64,000 nucleotides of DNA from Candidatus Omnitrophota bacterium (GCA_028715785.1 JAQURC010000002.1:140322-204321); one strand, 5' to 3'. Shown: positions 8,745 to 9,240, counted from the stretch's first letter. Numbers and translations are program-made. The notes: generated by a model from the sequence alone, not told the origin.

Positions 8745-9240
8745 TGATTAGCTTTGGCTTTCCGTCTTTTGCTTTGGTACAATAGCGGGTCCTGCCGAGC
8801 CTTGTCTTTGGCAGCACCGCTCGATTTTCCCCAGCGTGGAAAATCTTCGCTTCGGCAAAAATTCTCGCTCTGCCAGGACATTTAGTGCGGGCAACCCTGC
8901 CCGCTCGAATTTTTGAGATGCTGCTCGAGTCCAAGGTTCGTCACCCGCTAAGCTGCGAAAAACCTTTTGCGTTAAGAAATCGACATTCGCTGCGAAACTT
9001 GTCAGTGTCATCTATATATATTATCAGCGGATGGCTTGGCTTGATTTCGAGCAGGGCGTTTGCAGGCCGAGCGGGCACGGCTGCCCACAATAAATGCTCC
9101 GGCAGAGCGAGGCCGAAACCCGAGCGCAGTTTGCCGCGCAGGGGCAAACAAGCGTCCCTGCGAGAAAACAAGACAAGGCAGACGCTTAAGGAAGGACCCG
9201 CGTAATTATTCCTTGAAAACCGGAGTGTTTTAATATAAAA
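8745..9240 (+). ncRNA. Unassigned GC-rich, hairpin-dense non-coding island (candidate structured RNA or 5' leader)
   Basis: ~500 nt with no credible ORF. Contains several perfect hairpins: GATTTTCC-N7-GGAAAATC, GCTTCGGC (a UUCG tetraloop), GCGGGCA-ACCC-TGCCCGC, and CGCAGGG-N12-CCCTGCG. An outer GGCAG...CTGCC pairing encloses the first two. Composition is higher-GC than the flanks. The UUCG loop suggests a + strand transcript. Confidence 0.3.

Follow-up and report, generated by a model that had tools for sequence, protein, structure and literature searches.

A GC-rich intergenic island in an Omnitrophota genome consists of two convergent copies of a structured, putatively mobile repeat unit

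We analysed the GC-rich, hairpin-dense island at 8745-9240 of the window, by which we mean the whole 64,000-nucleotide (64-kb) stretch of Candidatus Omnitrophota DNA. The results showed that the island consists of two convergent copies of a small structured unit, U (copy A on the + strand and copy B on the - strand), with a remnant of a second module, X, between them. On balance, we favour reading U as a non-autonomous mobile element, small and of the MITE/ERIC/REP type, that works in a folded state, with inverted pairs of U, or U followed by X, acting as cassettes.

The GGDEF reading frame ends at 8739 and the ROK frame starts at 9248, leaving a spacer of 508 bp. The GC content of 8745-9240 was 51.6% (0.516), compared with a mean of 44.4% (0.444; sd 0.031) for 496-nt windows across the 64 kb, and 1.5% of such equal-sized windows were as GC-rich. 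A Pfam search of the ORFs inside the spacer gave no match, and mechanical ORFs of 84-106 aa cross the island. These results bear out the original prediction of a spacer without a plausible gene and richer in GC than its surroundings. The hairpins that it had listed were also present, namely the stem GATTTTCC/GGAAAATC at 8823-8845, the stem GCGGGCA/TGCCCGC at 8887-8904, a mini-hairpin GC-UUCG-GC near 8847-8856, and a GGCAG...CTGCC pairing that encloses the local stems. The density of stable stems was confirmed by folding, in which the spacer reached -207.3 kcal/mol on the + strand (z -7.42) and -216.9 kcal/mol on the - strand (z -7.72) against dinucleotide shuffles, with 0/100 shuffles folding as well. 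The region had been matched to no RNA family by eye, and Rfam 15 agreed, returning nothing at gathering score for the island and only chance-level matches at E<=10.

The strongest pairings in the island were long-range inverted repeats, with arms at 8785-8796/9190-9201 (12 nt, 92% complementary), at 8799-8808/9170-9179 (10 nt) and, as the best pair, at 8864-8907/9068-9111 (44 nt, 84%). These arms make the island an imperfect palindrome of ~420 bp with its centre near 8990, which explains why both strands of the spacer folded equally well. When the left arm was aligned with the reverse complement of the right arm, each was found to keep its own local hairpins while the stem sequences differed; for example, the stem pair GATTTTCC..GGAAAATC in one arm is GTTTGCC..GGCAAAC in the other. 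This indicates that the arms are two diverged, self-folding copies and not one giant hairpin. The 44-nt arms are the most conserved core of both facing units, and the pattern made from this core retrieved the U family described below. Two U copies facing each other thus produce the 420-bp palindrome, and this arrangement accounts for the crowded hairpins, the raised GC content and the fact that the two strands fold equally well.

We then compared the locus with its relatives (contigs are cited by L number). By its ROK protein, the window was assigned to a Candidatus Omnitrophota MAG, and an exact look-up of that protein gave no record. In five relatives that have the same gene order as the window (ACC carboxyltransferase, ABC ATPase, GGDEF, GGDEF, ROK, LptD) and ROK genes 83-90% identical, the GGDEF-ROK spacer measured 42-43 bp, and the empty site read ...CCCGCCTAATTAT[A]TCCTTGAAAA... 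or ...CCCGCCTAATTAT[A]TCCTTGAAAAATTATGTATTTTAATATAGAATACCACAATGG. A sixth syntenic relative (L095), which is probably the closest one by spacer sequence, has a spacer of 107 bp that holds a perfect hairpin unrelated to the island. The extra DNA in the window spacer amounts to 458-466 bp (~460) and is bounded by a 14-nt direct repeat with 13/14 identical positions, CCCGCCTAATTATT (8731-8744) and CCCGCGTAATTATT (9197-9210), whose length can be taken as 8-14 nt; the right junction, CCCGCG-TAA, resembles the target, CCCGCC-TAA. The insertion sits exactly between the GGDEF stop codon and a ROK promoter-like site, TTGAAA-17-TAAAAT (9213-9241), which lies downstream of it and aligns with the spacer of the relatives. 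The short spacers of the six syntenic relatives indicate that the island is a lineage-specific insertion and not a conserved ROK leader, and this insertion is recent. The earlier suggestion of an elaborate 5' leader therefore fails for ROK, both on the six relatives that lack the island and on the position of the promoter-like site. The two tandem GGDEF genes upstream (6473-8739) overlap by 13 nt, the first carrying a GAF domain, and this arrangement was conserved in all relatives examined.

From left to right, the island is made up of the direct repeat, a 37-nt segment, U_A pointing right, the X remnant pointing right, U_B pointing left, a U tip and the direct repeat again. The left direct repeat belongs to the native sequence, and the GGDEF stop codon TAA (8737-8739) falls inside it. 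The 37-nt left junction segment (8745-8781) lies within the insertion and outside the palindrome and is absent from the relatives' spacer; no convincing match to it was found upstream of other U units, and none to X. A sigma-70-like promoter motif that begins in this segment, TTGGCT-18-TACAAT (8754-8783), is probably fortuitous, because transcription from it would begin inside helix P1. U_A, the type-A copy, occupies 8782-8953 on the + strand (full-length covariance-model match, 169.5 bits, E 4e-40) and comprises the long closing stem P1-P3, the P4 hairpin (8823-8845), a conserved unpaired stretch CUCGCUCUGCC..CAUUUA and hairpin P7 (8887-8904). It folded alone to -70.3 kcal/mol (z -5.06) and was 85% identical over 187 nt to its counterpart in L009. 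The X remnant, about the 3' third of the module, lies at 8954-9013 on the + strand, co-oriented with U_A, and forms the spacer between the units. Using nhmmer with a six-sequence X profile on the island alone, 8931-9011 (+) was matched to profile positions 131-225 (E 6e-8), and the palindromic closing stem of X also matched the - strand at 9011-8977. Just after the X remnant comes an AT-rich centre, CTATATATAT (9012-9021). U_B, the type-B copy, occupies 9022-9191 on the - strand, convergent with U_A (174.6 bits, E 2e-41), and the + strand of the same site scored only 29 bits; it folded alone to -76.5 kcal/mol (z -4.73) and was 90.6% identical over 159 nt to the copy in L007. The two copies lie 68 bp apart and are 61.5% identical. 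At the right end, an extra outer U tip on the - strand (9190-9202; reverse complement CGCGGGTCCTTCC) mirrors the 5' end of U_A (8785-8796) and so provides the composite with a terminal inverted repeat, an arrangement that recurs at the right end of L013, the other pair without cargo. The CCCGCG-TAA portion of the right direct repeat doubles as the element's own tip.

To define the U family, we derived a search pattern from the core common to both arms. Among 185,579 species-representative genomes it found 6 loci, all six in Omnitrophota MAGs with one arm-like copy each, and a looser pattern found 84 metagenome loci, with one or two matches per long contig. With a covariance model built on eight units, ~95 full-length U units (90-190 bits) were detected in Omnitrophota genome and metagenome contigs, and the reverse strand of U sites scored only 20-34 bits. 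No further copies were found by blastn and the covariance model in the 64-kb window beyond U_A and U_B, and the search for U in IMG/VR (viral contigs), plasmids and phages gave no match. As far as sampled, the family is confined to Omnitrophota. The units are 162-204 nt long (~170), with the ends TTAGCGGGT / ACCCGCTAA and a GC content of 50-66% against the window average of 44%; truncated copies also occur (for example, L008 6127-6237). They fall into two old subfamilies, A and B, and over all units the pairwise identity averages 69%. The window holds one unit of each type, each of them closer to units in other genomes. U is non-coding, showing no 3-nt periodicity and lengths spread evenly modulo 3, which, together with the Pfam result, agrees with the earlier judgement that the island is not a degraded gene. 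Rfam gave no match on these elements at loci with full U+X modules, and a survey of the literature on Omnitrophota non-coding RNAs or repeats returned nothing relevant.

The consensus of U comprises a long stem, P1-P3, that closes the unit, a hairpin P4 whose CCnGCG loop is conserved, a helix P5, an invariant single-stranded CUCGCUCUGCC-N4-CAUUUA and a near-invariant hairpin GGGCA-NNNN-UGCCC. In an alignment of 85 distinct units, which was fitted to the model, 93.5% of the cells pair and 32/43 pairs carry double (compensatory) changes; none of 500 shuffles reached any of these measures, and slid controls were 27-50% paired. An independent MAFFT/RNAalifold analysis of eight U sequences showed compensatory changes in 19/43 pairs. 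On the modelled strand, G-U pairs outnumbered A-C pairs by 102 to 52 (2:1). The secondary structure of U is thus maintained by compensatory changes. The original prediction of one large structured RNA was partly borne out: the stems are real and maintained, as the compensatory changes in homologous units attest, and the single large RNA resolves into two convergent copies plus a fragment of X. The comparison of syntenic regions that it had proposed yielded spacers of 42-107 bp without the island, and covariation was found instead in homologous units elsewhere.

U units that are 90-98% identical were found in unrelated flanks, for example in L072/L036 (98.3%) and L060/L034 (96.4%), and their similarity is bounded on both sides by the unit ends (TT(T)AGCGGG...CCCGCTAA), which are sharp (TTAGCGGG…CCCGCTAA). 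These near-identical copies in unrelated flanks indicate that U is mobile or at least copied horizontally as a discrete unit. The orientation of U relative to its neighbours was mixed, with 37 upstream genes in the same and 47 in the opposite direction, and 47 and 42, respectively, downstream. Many units begin 0-15 nt past a stop codon or directly adjoin a start codon, with unrelated upstream flanks, and the enrichment of U at contig ends was mild (17 observed vs 11.5 expected, P about 0.045). Among 393 neighbouring ORFs grouped by blastp, no transposase, integrase, recombinase or RAYT-like gene recurred within 3 kb of U, the recurrent clusters being housekeeping families only, and none of the U pairs encloses a transposase. 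The search for target-site duplications gave no consistent picture: besides the direct repeat in the window, L060 carries GTAATAA/GTAATTA, and the other pairs and near-identical solo copies had none.

The same family could instead be a genuine non-coding RNA gene family, encoding a trans-acting sRNA or the RNA of an RNP, in which case the window would hold two convergent paralogous genes acquired together and the apparent mobility would come from hitch-hiking. We consider this rather unlikely. Deep nested covariation, together with the invariant single-stranded stretches and the P7 hairpin, is typical of functional RNAs, and the 2:1 excess of G-U over A-C, the model scores concentrated on one strand and the raised GC content point the same way. 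The copy number looks low (one pattern match per species genome, one or two per long contig, one locus in 64 kb), which counts against a mobile repeat. Low copies, the 61.5% identity of the two units within one genome and the persistence of U at orthologous sites fit a selected function better than selfish bursts. However, -10 boxes upstream of the U family showed no positional peak compared with the control side, the upstream flanks are unrelated, and many units lie 0-15 nt behind a stop codon or right at a start codon. The truncated copies and the sharp loss of identity at the unit ends likewise speak against such genes, as does the hairpin with a T-run of type A, which is missing in type B. 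This hairpin was considered as an intrinsic terminator and rejected: it occurs in type A only (8887-8904 followed by TCGAATTTTT), its U-run is part of helix P5, and GGCCUGCAAACG replaces it in type B. Resemblances to group II intron domain V, 6S RNA, retron ncRNA, TnpB/IscB omega-RNA and IS110 bridge RNA were set aside as well, on the basis of the Rfam comparison and of the absence of their defining neighbours (RT, TnpB/IscB, DEDD recombinase) or shapes.

Returning to U as a mobile element, we examined what its copies enclose. Convergent U pairs flank one variable gene in L021, L038, L040, L055/L062 and L079, and stand without a gene in the window (68 bp apart) and in L013 (45 bp apart). The cargo inside convergent pairs comprised SIR2_2 (SIR2-like), ORF6N/PDC-S05, DUF5677, a pilin-like gene and uncharacterised genes; TIR_2 and Mrr_cat genes were found beside single units. 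These contents suggest that U units mark small defence-gene cassettes. Defence-like genes near U were located at L038 478-1533, L056 544-1554, L022 69-887 and L055 7545-8060; the set comprises a SIR2-like gene, a TIR-domain gene, an Mrr-type restriction nuclease that also carries a sigma-70 region 4 domain, and a protein of the ORF6N type (PADLOC candidate PDC-S05), beside or between U units.

A hot spot was found after the stop codon of an amidohydrolase gene, usually by crcB. U persists there across contigs (11 loci), and the cargo differs among contigs or is absent. U and/or X occur in this amidohydrolase...crcB / DUF190 / nucleoside phosphorylase setting in L009, L010, L024, L029, L030, L036, L040, L049 and L079, and the gene behind the units there is DUF5677, a 'CCCFHCW' protein in either orientation, one of several uncharacterised genes, or none. 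Recurrent (core) genes were found more often on the 5' side of U (34/74) than on its 3' side (18/80; Fisher P = 0.0035), an asymmetry that may be inflated by a few repeatedly sampled hot spots.

Module X is a ~220-nt element that lies downstream of U on the same strand, 10-1300 nt away, at about 16 units. In 16/16 cases it was co-oriented with U, either adjacent or with a cargo gene between, and U...X flanks cargo in L016, L024, L029, L036, L069 and L087. Copies were located at L071 1851-2067, L073 1273-1502 (-), L015 3016-3235 (-), L033 3474-3706 (-), L024 9872-10093, L036 1971-2185 and L029 995-1211, among others. RNAalifold on 13 X sequences predicted 60 pairs, 32 of them with compensatory changes, and Rfam gave no match for X. 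A conserved start 'MxLxxFAANV' downstream of some U units was considered as a small ORF and rejected, as it corresponds to the closing stem of X and the frames break at 7-40 codons. Near the U+X module of L015, a sub-threshold match to the cspA thermoregulator (2633-2942; 49.7 bits vs a gathering score of 78) lies upstream of and into a cold-shock-like gene.

From these arrangements we infer how U is mobilised. U would be moved in trans by an enzyme that is not encoded beside it, and would be recognised or constrained as a folded single strand, either as ssDNA during mobilisation or as RNA when read through; this proposed constraint would explain why the stems of U co-vary. A pair of inverted U copies, or U together with X, may carry the gene between them as a mobile insertion cassette, and the window would then show the cargo-less (foldback) form, an empty cassette. 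Excision of such a cassette as a circle would give a junction in which ...GGACCCGCGTAATTATT is joined to TGATTAGC... At the GGDEF-ROK locus, the island is most likely a passive insertion at a safe site, and at most it may form a strong hairpin barrier, or a target for RNase, that separates the GGDEF transcription unit from that of ROK. A bolder version, which we find rather doubtful, takes U and X as the two ends of an undescribed Omnitrophota gene-cassette mobilisation system, with either folded ssDNA sites or guide/ribozyme RNAs. Single defence or accessory genes would then be shuttled between intergenic hot spots without an adjacent transposase, and the system, if real, would be a functional analogue of integrons and pdif modules with a new site architecture.

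A related proposal, which we judge unlikely, makes U and X the recombination sites, folded as single strands, of a cassette-exchange system not described before and resembling attC or pdif. A dedicated recombinase encoded elsewhere would then put in and exchange single genes at hot spots, and the island would represent an empty docking pair. As in attC, the structure of U is conserved while its sequence diverges, the sites would fold as single strands, and single small genes of varied, partly defence-like or accessory function lie between the sites. Each unit ends in inverted core-like tips (TTAGC.../...GCTAA), different cargo occupies one hot spot with similarity breaking exactly at the 3' end of U, and the right junction of the insertion resembles the target at the GGDEF-ROK locus. 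However, attC sites are 57-141 bp long, carry the cores RYYYAAC/GTTRRRY, and form direct arrays next to intI with one site per cassette, and U has none of these features. The units, at 170-220 nt, exceed any attC; their ends are TTAGC...GCTAA; the flanking sites are inverted (U/U) rather than direct and number at most two per locus, without longer arrays; and neither an integrase nor any other tyrosine or serine recombinase lies nearby.

Very unlikely is a cis-acting RNA of the local operon, whether a 5' leader or attenuator of ROK or a 3' stabiliser or terminator of GGDEF. The island does separate two genes of the same orientation, read-through transcription would yield a very stable hairpin, and type A has a hairpin with a T-run, but this reading is already largely refuted by the empty sites, since six close relatives have these genes without the island. 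The ROK promoter-like site is found only after the island, and other family members have unrelated genes as neighbours, in either orientation. That the island is a degraded gene, or a foldback artefact of assembly, can practically be dismissed: the mechanical ORFs of 84-106 aa, and the palindromes that chimeric assembly can yield, are outweighed by the absence of Pfam matches and codon periodicity, by unit lengths that are not multiples of 3, by arms only 61-84% alike that belong to different subfamilies with closer relatives in other genomes, and by the independent occurrence of the same cargo-less inverted arrangement in L013.

Among known elements, U resembles MITEs in several respects. It is small and non-coding and has no transposase (<~600 bp expected; 162-204 nt for U and ~420 bp for the composite), it has terminal inverted repeats (unit ends TTAGCGGGT / ACCCGCTAA; composite 8785-8796 / 9190-9201), and near-identical copies (90-98%) stand at unrelated sites, with presence/absence documented by the six empty sites. 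No parent autonomous IS with matching ends was found, either as a transposase enclosed in pairs or as a recombinase within 3 kb. U therefore has most of the defining features of a MITE, with a direct repeat at the junctions that differs between copies or is absent and with no parent IS found, and belongs to no named family. ERIC/IRU of enterobacteria, Correia/NEMIS of Neisseria and RUP/BOX of pneumococci are, like U, short imperfect palindromes that are non-coding, end in terminal inverted repeats, occur between genes in either orientation, are present or absent between relatives, and lack a transposase. The stems of these elements appear to be maintained at the RNA level. In contrast to these, U is longer (~170 nt) and multi-branched, has a much lower copy number and two old co-existing subfamilies, is tied to X in a fixed order and often brackets a gene, and no consistent duplication (TA or other) was seen.

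REP/REPIN sequences, served by RAYT (IS200-like Y1), are also palindromic and intergenic, are recognised as folded single strands, move as inverted doublets and have their enzyme elsewhere. However, REPs are 20-40 nt long, occur in tens to hundreds of copies and flank the RAYT genes, whereas U is five times larger, multi-branched and much rarer, with no RAYT/Y1 gene nearby, so that U does not group with REP/REPIN-RAYT systems. In the mobile insertion cassette or MITE-pair concept, inverted non-autonomous ends surround a passenger gene without a transposase (PMC6199540, PMC5444012). MICs (MIC231 of the Bacillus cereus group) and MITE-pair composites resemble U pairs in this respect, and their cargo-less versions resemble MITEs. 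MIC ends are short terminal repeats of IS231, moved by its transposase with target duplication, whereas the ends of U pairs are 170-nt structured units with no known parent IS and inconsistent duplication.

U and X add two well-supported structured motifs absent from Rfam, from an uncultivated phylum with hardly anything known about its non-coding or mobile DNA. Their position beside single, partly defence-like cargo at recurrent hot spots suggests an exchange of accessory genes without a neighbouring transposase, and if the enzyme were found, U/X could represent a recombination or transposition system of a new type, built on structured sites. U also accounts for a class of 'orphan' GC-rich islands between genes in Omnitrophota MAGs, and it cautions that inverted repeat pairs must not be read as single large RNAs.

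The only Rfam gathering-level matches in the window were a bacterial class A RNase P RNA (26324-26664, 167.5 bits) and three tRNA genes (25019-25092, 25107-25180 and 58174-58247). A third dispersed palindromic repeat, AAATAAA-GGGGACGGTTCTAT-(loop)-ATAGAACCGTCCCC-TTTATTT, was found in the window at 40723-40802, 44089-44169 and 61410-61448, and also at L095 2398-2456, L015 2140-2192 and L019 312-358; it resembles a bidirectional terminator. The GGDEF-ROK spacer of L095, probably the closest relative, is filled by one copy, which points to this spacer as a recurrent landing site for small palindromic elements.
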